Virus record (IMG/VR): IMGVR_UViG_3300005260_000001
Span: 1-44,560 of that record
Source of the DNA: a virus
DNA length: 44,560 bases
Strand: one strand, 5' to 3'
The stretch's first letter is position 1. Every line of letters begins with the position of its first letter. Made by a program: the position numbers and the translations under genes. Below the pieces are notes generated by a model, which did no database searches, was not told the DNA's origin, and saw nothing but the letters and a program-made list of their open reading frames with translations. Positions 2,628 to 11,656 of the stretch are shown in pieces.

Positions 2628-3671
2628 TTATTCAGCATCTTGCGACCCCCGCTTGGCAAACCGGCGGCTCAGGTTTGCCACCGCTTCATCCGCCAAAAGC
2701 TCCCGATTGGCCTTTTCGGCATAGTGGGCGAACTGCTTGTCGGTCTTGTGGCCGGTCACGGCTCGGCCCTGGAATGTCGTTGCGCCGGATTCGGCTAGTC
2801 GGCGGCTCATGGCTTTGCGCAGCCCGTGCGGGGAGCAATGCGGAACGCCCGCCTTCACGCAGGCGCGCTTAAACCACTTGGCAAGCCCTTTGGTCGTGTA
2901 GGGCTTGCCGAACTCCGTCACCAGATAGGTCATGTGCCCGCTGTCGCAGGCGTCAATCGCGGCGTCGAGTTCGGGCGTGGCGGGGACTATCGTGTCGCTG
3001 TCATTCTTGCCGTGGTGCAGGTGGAATTTCCCGCCCCGGCGATGCTGGCGACCGACAACTGCCGCATCGCTCACTCGAAGCGCCAGATAGAGCATAAGCG
3101 CTTCGGCAAGGCGCTCCTTCGTGCCAAGTGGCCACCGGGCCTCGAACAGCGCGATTTCTTCCTCGGTCCATGTGTGAAAGCCCTTGCCCTCAGGGTAGGG
3201 ATCGGTGGCGTCCACAGGATTGTCCGAGCGCCAGCCCAGCCATACCGCGTGCTTGTGGATTCGCTTCAGTATCTTGCGTAGAACATTTGCCGCGCCCGGC
3301 GTCCCGGCCATGCTAACCAGCTTGTCATCGATCAGGCGAGCAGTCATGGTTTTGGCGCTCTTGGACCCGTTTTTTGCCCGGAACCGCTCAAGCACCCCAC
3401 GATAGGTTTTCTGGCTCGATGGCTTCATCTTGAGCCACTGTTTTGTGCGGTAAAAGCTTGAGATTAGAGCATCATAGGTGTAGGGTTCAAACCTTGGCTC
3501 TTTGACAGGTTCGGCATTTTTCGCTGCGGCGTATTCTTCCATGAACTCGCGCGATCCGGGGGAGTGTCGGAAGTGATAAGTCGGCTGCCCCGTCTTGCGG
3601 AAGCGATAGCGCTTCTTGCCATGCCGGTCGGTCCACTCGGTCACATTCTCGGGCAACCAGCGGCGTTTCAT
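2628..3671 (-). CDS. int: Tyrosine recombinase / phage integrase
   Basis: C-terminal catalytic region ...HGLRKAMSRRLAESG...VTGHKTDKQFAHYAE... (R, HxxR and H/Y signature). Sits at the end of the early operon next to a repeat-rich non-coding region. Confidence 0.9.
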   Translation of the reverse strand: MKRRWLPENVTEWTDRHGKKRYRFRKTGQPTYHFRHSPGSREFMEEYAAAKNAEPVKEPRFEPYTYDALISSFYRTKQWLKMKPSSQKTYRGVLERFRAKNGSKSAKTMTARLIDDKLVSMAGTPGAANVLRKILKRIHKHAVWLGWRSDNPVDATDPYPEGKGFHTWTEEEIALFEARWPLGTKERLAEALMLYLALRVSDAAVVGRQHRRGGKFHLHHGKNDSDTIVPATPELDAAIDACDSGHMTYLVTEFGKPYTTKGLAKWFKRACVKAGVPHCSPHGLRKAMSRRLAESGATTFQGRAVTGHKTDKQFAHYAEKANRELLADEAVANLSRRFAKRGSQDAE

Positions 3672-4026: not shown

Positions 4027-4417
4027 TGGGCGCACCCTCCGGGTCGGGCTTTCGCGGCTTCGCCGTCGAGCCTGCATCCGCAGTCTCGCCCGTTCCGGCT
4101 TCAATCCCTTGCGCAACGCGCTGCGCAACAGGAACATCACGCGAGTATGTTCTAATCCAAAGGACAGTCGCCTCACTCGCTTCATGCGGTGGCCAGCAAA
4201 GTTCGCGGACGATATACGCGGACGCGTTCCACATATTGGTGCGACCTGATGCGCGCAATTGATCGAGATATTCGAATGCCTCGGTCAGTTCATCCGCGGT
4301 CAATCCGCCCGCGCTAGCGATACCCGCCCGAAGGGCCGAGACGGAACGGCTCGGGCTTTGCCGGGTAGCGCGGTCGACGCCAGTCGAAGCGCCCGTATCT
4401 TGTTGTTTTCCGGTCAT
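4019..4417 (-). CDS. Hypothetical protein (132 aa)
   Basis: ATG at 4417 is in an ATGA overlap with the upstream stop. Protein-like core LTADELTEAFEYLDQLRASGRTNMWNASAYIV. Confidence 0.55.
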   Translation of the reverse strand: MTGKQQDTGASTGVDRATRQSPSRSVSALRAGIASAGGLTADELTEAFEYLDQLRASGRTNMWNASAYIVRELCWPPHEASEATVLWIRTYSRDVPVAQRVAQGIEAGTGETADAGSTAKPRKPDPEGAPND

Positions 4418-4755
4418 TTGCCCTCCTGGAGAATGCTGCGACCCCTGATGGCGGCGGCAATTGAATTCGCAGCTTGGCAAATAGCTTCGTTCTGTCCCAA
4501 CCAGCCTAGGACGGCCCAATCCTCCGCCACCTTCGCACAAGCCTCCCGCTCTGCCAGAACCAGTGCTTGGAAGTGGGGCGCAAGCTCGGCAGGCCATTCT
4601 ATTTCGGCGAGGCTGTCTCGAATTTCATCCAATCCCACATCACAGTCGGCGATTCCGTCGAAGGCAGCCAGAACGACATTCGTGAGAATTGTCACCACGC
4701 TCTCCGGCAGATCGATCACTTCGCCAGCTTCTGGTGGGAGGGTGGGGTTAGGCAT
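4414..4755 (-). CDS. Hypothetical acidic protein (113 aa)
   Basis: ATG at 4755 has an 8-nt overlap (ATGCCTAA) with the upstream stop. Confidence 0.5.
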   Translation of the reverse strand: MPNPTLPPEAGEVIDLPESVVTILTNVVLAAFDGIADCDVGLDEIRDSLAEIEWPAELAPHFQALVLAEREACAKVAEDWAVLGWLGQNEAICQAANSIAAAIRGRSILQEGK

Positions 4756-4942: not shown

Positions 4943-5624
4943 CGGCGCTATCCTTGTTGGTGAGGCGGCGGGCGGTTTCTAGCTCAGCGGCAATTTCAGC
5001 CAGACCGTCCGTTTCTTCGTCGAGCCTGGCGGGCCTCCAAGCGACTGGAACGCCACGACCTGCCGTGAAGTGATCGTGCGACCAGCACCAGCCGGCGAGG
5101 AACCATTCGTCCTCACCGGTATCCTCGAATCCGTTGAACCCGATTGTGACGCCATAGCGGGCTGTATCTTGCAGCGCGTGGTCCGCGTCCTCGCCCGAAT
5201 AATCCACGATCAGTTCGAGCATGCGATGGTCGCGCGGTGCGCTCGCAATGTCGCGCCATTCCTCGCGCTCCGCCTTCTCGGCTTCTAGTTGGCGGAACCA
5301 CCACGCGATTTGGTTTGCGATGATGACCGGATTGTCGCCGCGGACGGCACAATCTACGAGCTCCCCTATCTTGACGCGTATATTTTCACTCTCCCCCACA
5401 GATACGGGAGTGCGGGGCTTTTCGGATGCGATGCGGTGGTTCCAGGCTGAGACGGCTCGTTCTTCCGTGTCACGGTTTGGTCCATGAAAGGCAGATGGGC
5501 CGCATGCTCCACAGCCTTTGCAGAATGTTTCTTTTCCATCTCGAACGTAACGTAAGACCGCACCGCCCCCACAAAACGGGCACGGCAGCAAATCCACCTG
5601 CTCGACCTTGAGTTCGTTAGCCAA
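4932..5624 (-). CDS. Lar-like restriction-alleviation Zn-ribbon fused to a DUF551-like domain (230 aa)
   Basis: AAGGAGG then TTG start at 5624, overlapping the ninB stop (TTGGCTAA). N-terminus LLPCPFCGG...CKGCGACGP...EERAVSAWNHR resembles the Lar family. The C-terminus is near-identical to gene 11321..11656. Confidence 0.6.
   Translation of the reverse strand: MANELKVEQVDLLPCPFCGGGAVLRYVRDGKETFCKGCGACGPSAFHGPNRDTEERAVSAWNHRIASEKPRTPVSVGESENIRVKIGELVDCAVRGDNPVIIANQIAWWFRQLEAEKAEREEWRDIASAPRDHRMLELIVDYSGEDADHALQDTARYGVTIGFNGFEDTGEDEWFLAGWCWSHDHFTAGRGVPVAWRPARLDEETDGLAEIAAELETARRLTNKDSADGV
4991..5241. repeat. Internal direct repeat, copy A (about 251 bp)
   Basis: By-eye alignment to 11359..11609 shows about 12 mismatches and no gaps. 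It encodes the DUF551-like domain. Confidence 0.85.
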
Positions 5625-9183: not shown

Positions 9184-9539
9184 GACGGGGTGCCCCGGCG
9201 GGCGAGGGCCGCATTGATTTGCCCAAGGATTATTGGGCAGTTATGCTGCGCCGTTTCCAAGATCGCGGGTATTGGAAGCGCTTGGACCCGCTGTATGACG
9301 TTGACCATGTCGAGGAATGCTTGAGCGCAGCCCTTGGCATTTTCGAGTACCCCCACCAGCTCAGCTTGGCTATCGATGCGGTGGCGGGTGAAGGCTTGGA
9401 TCGCGGGGTGCCCATCGCTTGGCAAGCCAACCGCAAAGCCGCGCACCTTGTGCATGAACACAACTGCAGCCTCGCGATCCTGTTGCGTCACCGGCAGCAG
9501 TTCTGCTTTGGTATCAGGGTTCGTTCGCTCCGACATCAT
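9180..9539 (-). CDS. Hypothetical protein (119 aa)
   Basis: ATG at 9539 is in an ATGA overlap with the tnpB stop. Protein-like sequence ...LPVTQQDREAAVVFMHKV...GHPAIQAFTRHRIDSQ... Confidence 0.5.
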   Translation of the reverse strand: MMSERTNPDTKAELLPVTQQDREAAVVFMHKVRGFAVGLPSDGHPAIQAFTRHRIDSQAELVGVLENAKGCAQAFLDMVNVIQRVQALPIPAILETAQHNCPIILGQINAALARRGTPS

Positions 9540-10642
9540 GCCGCCGCCTTTCTCGGAGAAACCGGCGCAACCGCCAGCTTGGCCTCCGCAGGACCACGAA
9601 CGGCCCTGAACAGGATTACTTGTGCCGCCGCCACGTCCCGATCGGCCTTGAAGCCGCAGGGGCACGAATGAACGCGCTCCGACAGTTTCTTCGGTTCGAC
9701 CAGGCCGCAGCTTGGGCAGGTTTGAGAGGTGCCGCGAGGATCGACCTTCACCACCTGACAGCCGGCGCTTTCAGCCTTGTCGGTCAGGATTTGAAGAAAG
9801 CCGCCCCATGCAGCGTCGTTTACGTCACGAGCGAGACGCGAACGCGCCAAGCCTTTGATGTTCAAGTCCTCGACCGCGATCAGCCCGAACTTGCGGGTGA
9901 GATCGGAAGCGACCTGAAAATGGAACGTGCGCCGACTGCGCCTGATTTTGGCGTGAGTGGCCGCTACTTGCTGCCGCGCTTTGCTCCGGCGCTTCGATCC
10001 GCGCTTGCACCGAGATAGCGCCCGCTGGCGACGGCGGAGTTCCTTCTGGGCTTTTCGTGCATGGCGCGGATTTGGTATCAGCGTGCCATCTGACAGTGCC
10101 GCGAAGCTCGAAAGGCCAAGGTCCAGCCCGATCGCTTCGGCATTGTCGTTTGCGGCCCCTTCAACCTCGCAAACGAGCGAAAGATACCAGTGCCGTCCCT
10201 CGCGCTTGATGCGGCAGGAAACGGGCTTACTCGGTAACTGACGGTGCTGGTGAACGCGGATCGATCCGATGCCCTTCGCATGGAAGCGACCGTCGAAGCG
10301 AAAGCCGTCAGCCTGCGGCCATGAGAGGCTTTTGAACCATTCGCGACCCTTGAAGCGAGGGAAGCCGCCGCGCCGGAAGAACGCCTTGTAGGCGTGGTCG
10401 ACTTGGCGCAGCGTCCCCCGCTGCATTACTGCGGGGTAATTTGCGAAAACTGGGTCAGTCCTCAGTTCGGTCAACGCACGACATTGGTCCATGAAGGACC
10501 GCCCGCGCCCGGTCTTGCGGTAGCATTCAATCCGTTCGGCCAGCGCCGCGTTATAGAGTTCGCGGCAATGTTCCAGGGCTTCGCGCAAGCGGTTGTGCTG
10601 CACGCGCGTTGGCTTAAGCCGAAAGCGATAGGAGCGTATCAT
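9536..10642 (-). CDS. tnpB: TnpB (IS200/IS605-family OrfB, RuvC-type RNA-guided endonuclease)
   Basis: 368 aa. N-terminus MIRSYRFRLKPTRVQ..., RuvC-I IGLDLGLSSF, RuvC-II LIAVEDLNIKGL, Zn finger CPSCG...CPCG, RuvC-III ADRDVAAAQ. All catalytic acidic residues are present. Confidence 0.9.
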   Translation of the reverse strand: MIRSYRFRLKPTRVQHNRLREALEHCRELYNAALAERIECYRKTGRGRSFMDQCRALTELRTDPVFANYPAVMQRGTLRQVDHAYKAFFRRGGFPRFKGREWFKSLSWPQADGFRFDGRFHAKGIGSIRVHQHRQLPSKPVSCRIKREGRHWYLSLVCEVEGAANDNAEAIGLDLGLSSFAALSDGTLIPNPRHARKAQKELRRRQRALSRCKRGSKRRSKARQQVAATHAKIRRSRRTFHFQVASDLTRKFGLIAVEDLNIKGLARSRLARDVNDAAWGGFLQILTDKAESAGCQVVKVDPRGTSQTCPSCGLVEPKKLSERVHSCPCGFKADRDVAAAQVILFRAVRGPAEAKLAVAPVSPRKAAA

Positions 10643-10682
10643 TCCCCCGCCTCCCGAGCATATGCCCGAGCGCGGAGGGCGG
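9536..10682 (-). mobile_element. tnpB-only IS605-family element or domesticated remnant (ends not determinable)
   Basis: No tnpA anywhere in the window. A GC-rich imperfect inverted repeat (10647..10682) lies just 5' of the tnpB ATG. The right end and omega-RNA region must overlap the tnpB 3' end and the start of the next gene. Confidence 0.35.
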
Positions 10683-11121
10683 CTGCGTCATCGTCAAGGC
10701 CCCCGCCGTCTCGCATCGCAACGCCGTGAAGGCTGCGGATCGCGCTTTCGATCATTCCTCGAAGGAACGGGATTTGCCCCAGCCTATTCGCGGGCAGCAT
10801 CGGGATGGCCCATCTTTGCAGCATATCCGCGGTGGCGCTTAATCCTTGCGGCGAAAGGTCAAGTTGGCGGTCTTCGTCGTCAGCGACCGACTTGCAGTAT
10901 TCCGCATAGGACGCCTCGCCTTCTGGGCACTCAGGTGCTTCCCAAGTGTCGATCACGTCGGGCGGCAAGCCGGGGTCTTCGCCCCATCCCGGGTGCCAAT
11001 TTGAGCGGATACTTTGCGCAGTGGCTGCATCGCCACCTTGCTCGACAAATCGAGCCATCATCTCGCGGCAGGCTTGCGCGCCACGAGCGAAATCGTCGTC
11101 TGCATAGTCAGCCTCGCTCAT
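10639..11121 (-). CDS. Hypothetical acidic protein (160 aa)
   Basis: GGAGG RBS 7 nt before the internal ATG at 11121. Its stop overlaps the tnpB ATG (ATGA). Confidence 0.55.
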   Translation of the reverse strand: MSEADYADDDFARGAQACREMMARFVEQGGDAATAQSIRSNWHPGWGEDPGLPPDVIDTWEAPECPEGEASYAEYCKSVADDEDRQLDLSPQGLSATADMLQRWAIPMLPANRLGQIPFLRGMIESAIRSLHGVAMRDGGGLDDDAAALRARAYAREAGE

Positions 11122-11324: not shown

Positions 11325-11656
11325 GATGCAGCCTCGTCGGTCGGCGAAAGGGTCTGAACAATTTCAGCCAGACCGTCCGTTTCTTCGTCGAAGCGGGTCG
11401 GCCTCCAAGCGACTGGAACGCCACGACCTGCCGTGAAGTGATCGTGCGACCAGCACCAGCCGGCGAGAAACCATTCGTCCTCACCGGTATCGTCGAATCC
11501 GTTGAACCCGATTGTGACGCCGTAGCGGGCTGTATCTTGCAGCGCGTGGTCCGCGTCCTCGCCCGAATAGTCCACGATCAGTTCGAGCATACGATGATCG
11601 CGTGGTGCGGAATCGATCGCCGCCCACTTCCCCATGCTCTCTGGATTGGTGGTCAT
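11321..11656 (-). CDS. DUF551-like protein (111 aa)
   Basis: ATG at 11656 is in an ATGA overlap. W..IDSAPRDHRMLELIVDY...WFLAGWCW is a paralogue of the C-terminus of gene 4932..5624. Confidence 0.55.
   Translation of the reverse strand: MTTNPESMGKWAAIDSAPRDHRMLELIVDYSGEDADHALQDTARYGVTIGFNGFDDTGEDEWFLAGWCWSHDHFTAGRGVPVAWRPTRFDEETDGLAEIVQTLSPTDEAAS
11359..11609. repeat. Internal direct repeat, copy B (about 251 bp)
   Basis: Same orientation as copy A, offset 6,368 bp. Confidence 0.85.

Follow-up and report, generated by a model that had tools for sequence, protein, structure and literature searches.

The whole stretch of DNA analyzed here, the 44,560 nucleotides (nt) of IMG/VR virus record IMGVR_UViG_3300005260_000001, is referred to as the window, and the gene of interest within it is a minus-strand tnpB encoding a predicted RNA-guided nuclease of the ISDra2 type. 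The window belongs to a temperate phage, with an SU10-type portal and adaptor, lysozyme, NinB, DUF1064, helix-turn-helix (HTH) repressors, and an integrase at 2628..3671. The tnpB gene sits within a long minus-strand early operon, and every adjoining gene is on the minus strand, as a preliminary description of this DNA had stated. Neither a Y1 transposase nor a serine recombinase was present among the 150 longest of the window's 155 open reading frames (ORFs) of at least 95 amino acids (aa), in keeping with the earlier remark that TnpA is missing. No promoter-like site was found around tnpB, and terminator-like sites showed no excess there.

The 368-aa TnpB matched the Pfam families HTH_OrfB_IS605 (1.4e-11), OrfB_IS605 (3.6e-24), and Cas12f1-like_TNB (9.7e-22), all above curated cutoffs, and thus has the HTH, RuvC, and TNB/zinc-ribbon architecture of the family; it also matched phrog_506, annotated as "transposase" (E = 5e-94). 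The nearest solved structure is ISDra2 TnpB (8BF8/8EXA/8H1J, E = 1.8e-40), and the triad and zinc-finger motifs align with those of an AI-designed ISDra2-type TnpB homologue that heads the solved-structure matches. The RuvC triad is complete, comprising D174 (GLDLG), E258 (AVEDL), and D336 (ADRD), the CxxC..CxC zinc finger is formed by C309/C312/C327/C329, and the C-terminal RuvC/zinc-finger region is full length. The three acidic residues and the four cysteines are invariant in an alignment of 46 clade members. The hallmarks on which the gene had been called intact therefore hold up, and the inactivating RuvC substitutions that had been raised as a possible objection were not seen in that alignment. 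Comparison of the window tnpB with 12 relatives gave dN/dS values of 0.12 to 0.24, with dS ranging from 0.6 to >2, which indicates purifying selection and a presumably functional protein. The GC content of tnpB (61.6%) is similar to that of the phage (59.7%).

Omega-RNA scaffold, right end, and predicted guide

An omega-RNA scaffold appears to be nested in the last ~90 or more nt of the tnpB ORF. The last ~200 nt of tnpB and the sequence downstream were aligned across loci and folded with RNAalifold, and 18 of 33 predicted pairs were compensatory. The structure that we name here consists of three stems (A, B, and C) and a pseudoknot joining the loop of stem A to the scaffold end (Table 1). In a cleaner 14-sequence alignment, 18 of its 23 pairs had changed on both sides and 96.9% of alignment cells were paired, versus 77.4% in shuffles, and none of 500 shuffles reached the observed value by any measure. 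Sliding the partner columns by 1 to 3 positions lowered pairing to ~40%. Watson-Crick complementarity of at least 5 nt between loop and tail was present in all 15 loci tested, versus 17% of noncognate pairs, and ~10 distinct pseudoknot pairs are in use (e.g., GTTCG/CGAAC, GTCCAT/ATGGAC, GTGTCT/AGACAC, GGGATT/AATCCC, and GGGAAT/ATTCCC). The solved ISDra2 structures likewise contain a pseudoknot beside the guide. The active site and the pseudoknot have been retained in all copies, and the TnpB protein and its RNA have, judging by these alignments, been under selection as a pair.

A covariance model was built from these stems, with the window sequence itself included, and gave one strong match in the window (Table 1); the runner-up scored 9.9 bits (E = 0.8). 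The same model matched the 3' end of ~20 tnpB genes that are only 40 to 47% identical, and in full-model matches the stop codon was usually 13 to 45 nt short of the match end. The family thus shares a nested scaffold that ends in a short tail. Across the last ~90 codons of tnpB, synonymous-codon identity climbs from ~0.42 to between 0.57 and 0.82, as predicted for an overlapping functional RNA, and on this basis the scaffold may extend 5' to about 9800. Rfam yielded no match across the whole window at gathering thresholds, and for 9300-10900 at E values up to 10 it yielded only a chance match to snoU83B on the wrong strand, with no curated omega-RNA family. The preliminary description had placed the scaffold in the tnpB 3' coding region and proposed a covariance-model search there. 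The covariation and the single strong match support a structured RNA at that place, but the scaffold runs on past the coding region and ends 17 nt 3' of the stop, at 9519.

Within the window, positions 9536-9608 encode the C-terminal tail of TnpB, FRAVRGPAEAKLAVAPVSPRKAAA (residues ~345 to 368), from the omega-RNA stems. There are two alternative tails in the clade (AEAKLA-VAPVSPRK and AEHNVGGCAVRAPRK), and these track compensatory changes in the RNA. The tail peptide seems to be dictated by RNA structure rather than by protein function.

Because the 3' strand of the pseudoknot closes the scaffold at 9519, this position marks the right end of the element. A second locus, L021, leads to the same boundary independently. 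L021 is a mosaic sibling of the window phage (window 6716..5593 is 95% identical to L021 239-1362), and its tnpB is located at a different place than that of the window. The last base of its pseudoknot is 2897, and from 2898 onward (L021 2898-2939) it is 100% identical to window 4734..4693, where no tnpB is present.

The ATGA start of the downstream gene, ggcATGAtgtcg at 9539..9536, overlaps the tnpB stop as previously described. Since the right end reaches 9519, ATGATG (9539..9534) and the residues MMSERTN are part of the element rather than of the phage gene. By all indications from the alignments, the downstream gene thus takes its ribosome-binding site, its ATG, and its first seven codons from the right end of the transposon. 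The closest full-length homologue of the downstream protein, P0122, begins MTQPTAEQLEVTQADRDAA (opening residues MTQPTAEQLEVTQ), and BLASTP aligns residue 12 of the window protein with its residue 6, so that the native start would lie at about the right-end boundary. The remainder of the gene is coding-like, with GC fractions by codon position of 0.70/0.42/0.68. At the other locus, the gene downstream of the L021 tnpB begins MMSARTN|PEAGEVIDLPESVV, and its tnpB-free allele in the window (4755..4414) begins MPNPTLP|PEAGEVIDLPESVV. A native gene start therefore appears to have been replaced in frame by the right end in the window and, independently, in L021.

The linker arrangement, in which GAAAGG is followed by the tnpB stop and the downstream start, is common to 12 of 15 relatives. 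The invariant GAAAGG, 7 to 10 nt 5' of the right-end ATGs, resembles a ribosome-binding site. What most relatives conserve as the downstream start is the second ATG, which overlaps the stop by 1 nt (TGATG or TAATG), so the ATGA to which the preliminary description drew attention is itself incidental. Long (116 to 194 codons) and coding-like ORFs start from the right-end ATG in the window, L021, L168, L020, and L178; in other loci these ORFs are short, and most of them stop where the next gene begins or close to it. We considered whether the endings of the right-end ORFs, 14 of 16 of which fall in ATGA, GTGA, or TGATG, reflect a designed coupling, and we discounted this, because in GC-rich DNA of this kind about half of such endings would be expected to read NTGA with N = A or G. 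A search of IMG/VR with the right-end pattern CCSRGAAAGGYGGYGGCRTRA returned one true locus and five other matches without tnpB (L160, L161, L162, L164, and L165). The latter fall at ordinary gene junctions of tnpB-less phages, which makes the right-end linker hard to distinguish from a generic ribosome-binding site with a stop/start. Separately, the downstream protein has a conserved C-terminal domain, QAFLDMVNVIQRVQALPIPAILETAQHNCPIIL, which in P0139 and P0140 is fused to a Lar restriction-alleviation domain (PF14354), and a separate Lar-like ORF is encoded elsewhere in the window.

The guide had been expected in the first codons of the downstream gene. It would instead start at codon 8 (9518 onward), because the scaffold runs to 9519, and by analogy with ISDra2 its length would be 16 to 20 nt. 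The predicted guide is unique in the window at up to three mismatches. Its 18-nt form had three matches in IMG/VR (two distinct sequences), all in unrelated phages and judged to be chance. In L174 (4995-5012) and L176 (12970-12987), from a phage of ~51% GC, the 18-nt sequence CCTGATACCAAAGCAGAA stands exactly after the ATG of an unrelated gene, again probably by chance. When all fetched loci were scanned with the guide of every locus, the only match was that of the L021 guide to the window.

The 5' junction, left end, and relatives

At its 5' end, too, tnpB overlaps its neighbor by ATGA, as described before. Nucleotide similarity (blastn) of the window to L021, L168, L019, and L020 begins at 10641, the second base of the start codon, and the window reads ATG ATA CGC where relatives read CTG/GTG/TTG ATA CGC (Leu-Ile-Arg), only the A of the ATG being new. 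Together these observations imply that the junction gave rise to the tnpB start codon. The upstream gene ends in a TGA that falls within the family-conserved Leu-Ile codons (xTG ATA). Homologues of the upstream protein that are 70 to 78% identical occur in the tnpB-less phages L170-L173; their C-terminal tails are variable, and the window tail resembles them weakly. We rejected the left end as a source of the C terminus of the upstream protein on three counts, namely, the lack of left-end similarity, the start of similarity at 10641, and the native-like tail. Of the earlier suggestion that the insertion sequence (IS) ends now feed both flanking genes, the right-end half is thus upheld, in that the right end gives the start region of the next gene, but the left-end half is not.

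A left end of ~125 nt, preceded by YTTG, is conserved in seven relatives (L021, L168, L019, L023, L033, L041, and L082), with pairwise local scores 4.6 to 17 standard deviations above shuffles (z = 4.6-17). The left boundary in these copies reads YTTG(A/C/T), and the target-adjacent motif (TAM) used below was deduced from this and from the ISDra2 precedent. No left end of the IS200/IS605 kind, with a subterminal hairpin and flanked by a target or TAM motif, was found in the 130 nt upstream of the window tnpB (z = 0.5; no nhmmer match). The left end is missing in 8 of 16 loci: the window, L020, L031, L022, L080, L032, L166, and L177. Copies with and without it are interleaved by similarity, and it is retained in the nearest relatives of the window copy (L021 and L168), so that its loss must have occurred more than once.

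Two features upstream of the ATG had been put forward as possible traces of the element. The GC-rich hairpin at 10647..10682 does not stand out, since the fold of 10643..10700 is at chance level (z = 0.60; 141 of 200 shuffles fold at least as well), and we rejected it as a left-end hairpin. The pentamers TTGAC (10697..10693) and TTCAC (10730..10726) both exist, but a role as TAM or left-end junction found no support. TTGAC fits the YTTG of the relatives; it is nonetheless not supported as a TAM, as it lies 50 nt from the ATG versus ~125 in the relatives and the intervening sequence is unlike any left end.

Some loci show other arrangements. In L033 (2100-2250 and 3385-3415) and L041 (3860-4000 and 5128-5160), whose tnpB is 56% identical, the element is bounded by inverted repeats of 22 to 25 bp that include the pseudoknot strand (GGGGATTTATATACTTGACTACCCG ... 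CGGGTAGTCAAGTATATAAATCCCC). In L041, ACGAAAGG stands on both outer sides and resembles a target-site duplication, which is unusual for IS200/IS605. The left end of both loci carries a sigma-70-like promoter (TTGATC, 16 nt, TATAAT). A more distant tnpB locus, L111 (1-230), has a small ribbon-helix-helix (Arc/CopG-like) ORF just 5' of tnpB, reminiscent of the Arc repressors that were lately reported from IS605 elements; no such gene is present in the window. The flank past the right end in L032 showed a weak resemblance to the 5' region of L111, which was not above chance.

Among phage records, 581 of 50,697 contain tnpB, and the best of these is only 42% identical to the window TnpB. A protein-collection clade is closer (55 to 86% identical), and nearly all of its entries are singletons (one member, one contig), which points to a diverse lineage rather than a multicopy IS. 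Neither sign of a mobile IS was seen, be it a Y1 TnpA in cis among the 150 longest ORFs of the window or multiple near-identical copies among the clade proteins. We compared the DNA of 16 further distinct loci (52 to 86% identical), all relatives being metagenomic or draft contigs. Nearly all of them sit in early operons of phages or prophages; among the first 14, a phage or prophage setting holds for at least 11. The relatives adjoin ERF, RecT, SSB, NinB, Cro-like, methyltransferase, or integrase genes. In every clade locus examined, tnpB is co-oriented with its neighbors, and the boundaries mostly overlap by 1 to 4 nt. BLASTP detected no homology of flanking ORFs between loci, so the module has reached many different contexts. 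A few of the 120 clade proteins listed (e.g., P0017, P0074, P0081, and P0085) are ~300 to 317 aa long and lack the N-terminal HTH; no decayed copies were seen among the loci examined. In the phage DNA database only short stretches of an ASCH-domain gene matched, meaning that it holds no close relative. A scan of species-representative genomes found only actinobacterial and archaeal relatives that are 31 to 40% identical, with no extra copies that would define the ends or the TAM.

The window also holds a 251-nt direct repeat of 95% identity (4991-5241 and 11359-11609, minus strand), which corresponds to two paralogous copies of a ~149-aa gene flanking 6.4 kb of the early operon, tnpB included. 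The lower copy (4991-5241) occupies the position where L021 has its own tnpB. This arrangement suggests recombination or duplication around tnpB-bearing segments.

Table 1. Positions of tnpB, the omega-RNA elements, the junctions, and the adjoining genes in the window
Feature	Position	Strand	Details
tnpB coding sequence	9536..10642	minus	368 aa, ATG start; ISDra2-like RNA-guided nuclease
Covariance-model match to omega-RNA core	9516..9628	minus	113.5 bits
Omega-RNA stem A, CAGGGCC/GGTCCTG	9589..9608	minus	7/7 pairs compensatory; 100% of cells paired
Loop of stem A, GTTCGT	9596..9601	minus	Pseudoknot 5' strand
Omega-RNA stem B	9554..9588 (9583..9588 with 9554..9559)	minus	5/6 pairs compensatory; 98.8% paired
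Omega-RNA stem C, inside stem B	9572..9575 with 9564..9567	minus	1/4 pairs compensatory; 100% paired
Scaffold linker	9525..9553	minus	Invariant GAAAGG, tnpB stop (9538..9536), downstream ATGATG start(s)
Pseudoknot 3' strand, ACGAAC	9519..9524	minus	Final bases of scaffold and right end; 5/6 pairs covary
Predicted guide, CCTGATACCAAAGCAGAACT	9518..9499	minus	From codon 8 of the downstream gene; position from right-end boundary
Downstream phage gene	9180..9539	minus	119 aa; codons 1-7, MMSERTN (9539..9519), right-end sequence; native from about codon 8
tnpB-free allele of the gene downstream of L021 tnpB	4414..4755	minus	Starts MPNPTLP, then PEAGEV
5' junction, ATGA	10639..10642	minus	tnpB start over upstream stop; sequence ggggaATGAtacgc
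Shine-Dalgarno-like motif, GGGAGG	10650..10655	minus	7 nt 5' of tnpB ATG, within end of upstream gene; putative function
Region with candidate hairpin and TTGAC	10643..10700	minus	Fold z = 0.60; no detectable element part
Upstream phage gene	10639..11112	minus	Unknown function; C terminus looks native

Interpretation and competing explanations

Taken together, these observations make it probable, in our judgment, that the locus is a right-end-only remnant of a nonautonomous, tnpB-only ISDra2-like element of the IS200/IS605 group, which became fixed, co-oriented, in the early leftward operon of a temperate phage and constitutes a selfish module. Its role could be in homing or in conflict between phages, or it could be a tolerated, immobilized element. 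According to this explanation, tnpB would be transcribed within the operon and translated by coupling, and the operon mRNA would, by analogy with ISDra2 and the Geobacillus elements (PMC10055086), be both messenger and omega-RNA precursor. TnpB would carve the omega RNA out of it, leaving codons 8 to 14 of the next gene as the guide. Each transcript would give either guide RNA or downstream translation, and since a transcript trimmed to omega RNA could not express the downstream gene, the arrangement would have a built-in conflict. The ribonucleoprotein would be expected to cut DNA with the guide sequence beside a TTGAY-like TAM, and the phage's own copy would be protected, because the scaffold end (CGAAC) and not a TAM precedes the guide sequence. 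As it has no left end and no TnpA, this copy would be unable to move as an IS. Most likely it survives as a selfish module encoding an RNA-guided nuclease, which would spread or compete by inter-phage recombination, and the element ends may be tolerated because translational coupling is preserved.

Several findings weigh against this explanation. No convincing target of the window guide was found in the window, IMG/VR, or the fetched loci. The L021 guide fits the tnpB-free allele of the window perfectly, but the 5' flank there is CCCTCCCA, with no TTGAT-like motif, so that simple homing into a cognate empty allele is unsupported for the L021/window pair. No true empty site for the window copy was found either; the tnpB-less L170-L173, which have the upstream gene, have different genes downstream. 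L031, L168, and L178 have a weaker pseudoknot, with G-U pairs or 4 to 5 bp. Five of 16 loci have long in-frame ORFs from the right end, close to the one third that random junctions within co-oriented genes would give, and coupling-friendly ends may thus reflect survivorship and not design. Furthermore, the purifying selection seen between copies may come largely from the time they spent as mobile, left-end-bearing elements, and RNA processing, guide length, TAM, and cleavage are all drawn by analogy with ISDra2.

Other explanations accommodate parts of the same evidence. The preliminary description had raised the domestication of TnpB as a phage gene, and one such possibility is a nuclease that benefits the phage, either as a weapon against superinfecting or competing phages, prophages, or host DNA in which the guide match adjoins a TAM or as a source of breaks for ERF/RecT/NinB recombination. 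It would explain why TnpB and the omega RNA are intact even though half of the phage-borne copies have lost the left end, and why the gene is consistently found in early or recombination modules; moreover, TldR is a precedent for domestication of the TnpB lineage in temperate phages (10.1101/2023.11.30.569447). We nevertheless think it unlikely, as there is no conserved adjoining gene and the flanks differ at every locus, the guides are whatever adjoins the right end, with no target identified in the loci scanned, and related phages manage without tnpB. The copy is indeed immobilized and embedded in the operon, as domestication would have it, but it keeps all the features of a selfish RNA-guided nuclease. 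We judge equally unlikely an immobilized relic without present function, derived from a tnpB-only IS that inserted into the operon or entered it by recombination and then lost its left end, kept since its removal would damage the downstream start and intact owing to recent descent from active elements. The loss of the left end, with presence and absence interleaved and the closest relatives (L021 and L168) retaining it, is compatible with such a relic, as are the reliance of the downstream start on right-end sequence, the near-chance fraction of in-frame junctions, and the lack of identified targets for the guides in the loci scanned. Against this, the ORF, the catalytic residues, and the pseudoknot are maintained in all 16 loci, also in the 8 that lack a left end, despite dS values of 0.6 to >2; few clade proteins lack the HTH, and no locus among those examined is decayed.

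That the locus is instead a complete nonautonomous IS200/IS605 insertion with both ends, mobilized in trans by a host TnpA and abutting its neighbors by chance, is improbable. Although ~75% of tnpB genes have no tnpA nearby (PMC10055086) and seven relatives carry the conserved ~125-nt left end preceded by YTTG, the window has no left-end-like sequence (z = 0.5; nothing by nhmmer), its similarity to relatives begins at the second base of the start codon, and the putative hairpin is at chance level. A last possibility is a nuclease-dead, RNA-guided repressor of the TldR kind, since the window copy, like TldR, lies in a temperate phage with neither TnpA nor a left end. The D-E-D triad and zinc finger of the window TnpB are intact and clade invariant, however, the C-terminal RuvC/zinc-finger region is full length, and there is no conserved partner gene. 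We regard this explanation as practically excluded by the intact active site.

The right-end-only remnant that we favor could be one instance of something broader, which we put forward tentatively and consider somewhat unlikely, namely, that a nuclease-active TnpB/omega-RNA lineage has left the transposon cycle and its members are RNA-guided, free-standing homing endonucleases of temperate phages whose right-end tail has been exapted for translation initiation. The left end would then be dispensable and lost repeatedly, and the module would sit in operons without polarity. The guide would automatically be the 5' coding sequence of the adjacent gene, aimed at its alleles in competing or coinfecting phages, and the outcome would be RNA-guided marker exclusion or homing. 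As for membership in the homing-endonuclease class, tnpB is present in some related phages and absent from others, and the only matching tnpB-less allele has no TTGAT-like TAM.

Most tnpB genes are without a transposase, and the window locus and its relatives offer a concrete test case. Here an intact nuclease has a well-defined predicted guide RNA, has presumably lost the ability to transpose, is wired into an operon, and provides the next gene with its start. Should the ribonucleoprotein prove active, it would speak for RNA-guided homing or exclusion among phages, hitherto a matter of theory, and for a third way in which TnpB can live in transcription units, beside IStron splicing and intergenic insertion. 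Additionally, the compact scaffold and nucleotide-exact boundary would make this clade easy to try as a genome-editing nuclease.

Comparison with known systems

Omega RNAs that overlap the 3' end of tnpB are already known (PMC10055086), as are TnpB genes in phage genomes (10.64898/2026.02.14.705889). We found no published report of a nuclease-intact, left-end-less TnpB clade embedded in phage operons, nor of a right-end tail read as the start of a neighboring gene. Among the closest studied systems is ISDra2, whose TnpB shares its domain architecture and catalytic triad with the window protein and gives the best match among solved structures. There too the scaffold begins within the 3' part of tnpB and reaches to the right end, and the guide comes from flanking DNA. 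The window protein, however, is only ~30% identical, its ORF spans nearly the whole scaffold, which ends 17 nt past the stop, and the copy has no left end or TnpA and a right-end tail that would be translated as the N terminus of its neighbor.

IS1341-type elements likewise consist of tnpB alone, with any mobility provided in trans, and they have a noncoding RNA nested in the 3' part of the ORF (cited in PMC10055086). They keep both ends, and their flanks are usually noncoding, whereas the window copy lacks the left end and is joined to phage genes at both of its boundaries. TldR proteins derive from a TnpB-lineage gene fixed in temperate phages without tnpA or identifiable transposon ends (10.1101/2023.11.30.569447). 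In contrast to the window copy, which has an intact nuclease, a canonical right end and omega RNA, and variable neighbors, TldR has lost the RuvC site, has a conserved partner in fliC or oppF, and uses a promoter-targeting guide.

IStrons, which combine a group I intron with an IS605/IS607 TnpB, also accommodate TnpB inside genes or operons without destroying expression, and in them a single RNA has two competing uses (PMC10690162). The window differs in that it contains no intron (none by Rfam) and that its neighbor would be rescued by a translation start in the right end and not by splicing. The free-standing homing endonucleases Seg and Mob of phage T4 resemble the window tnpB in being small selfish nuclease genes wedged in co-directionally and present or absent among related phages. 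Their recognition is protein based, whereas an RNA guide and a TAM are predicted for the window copy, and its sole testable allele is without a TAM. A 2026 review describes "non-restorative homing" of TnpB elements into coinfecting phages as a theoretical possibility (PMC13565253).

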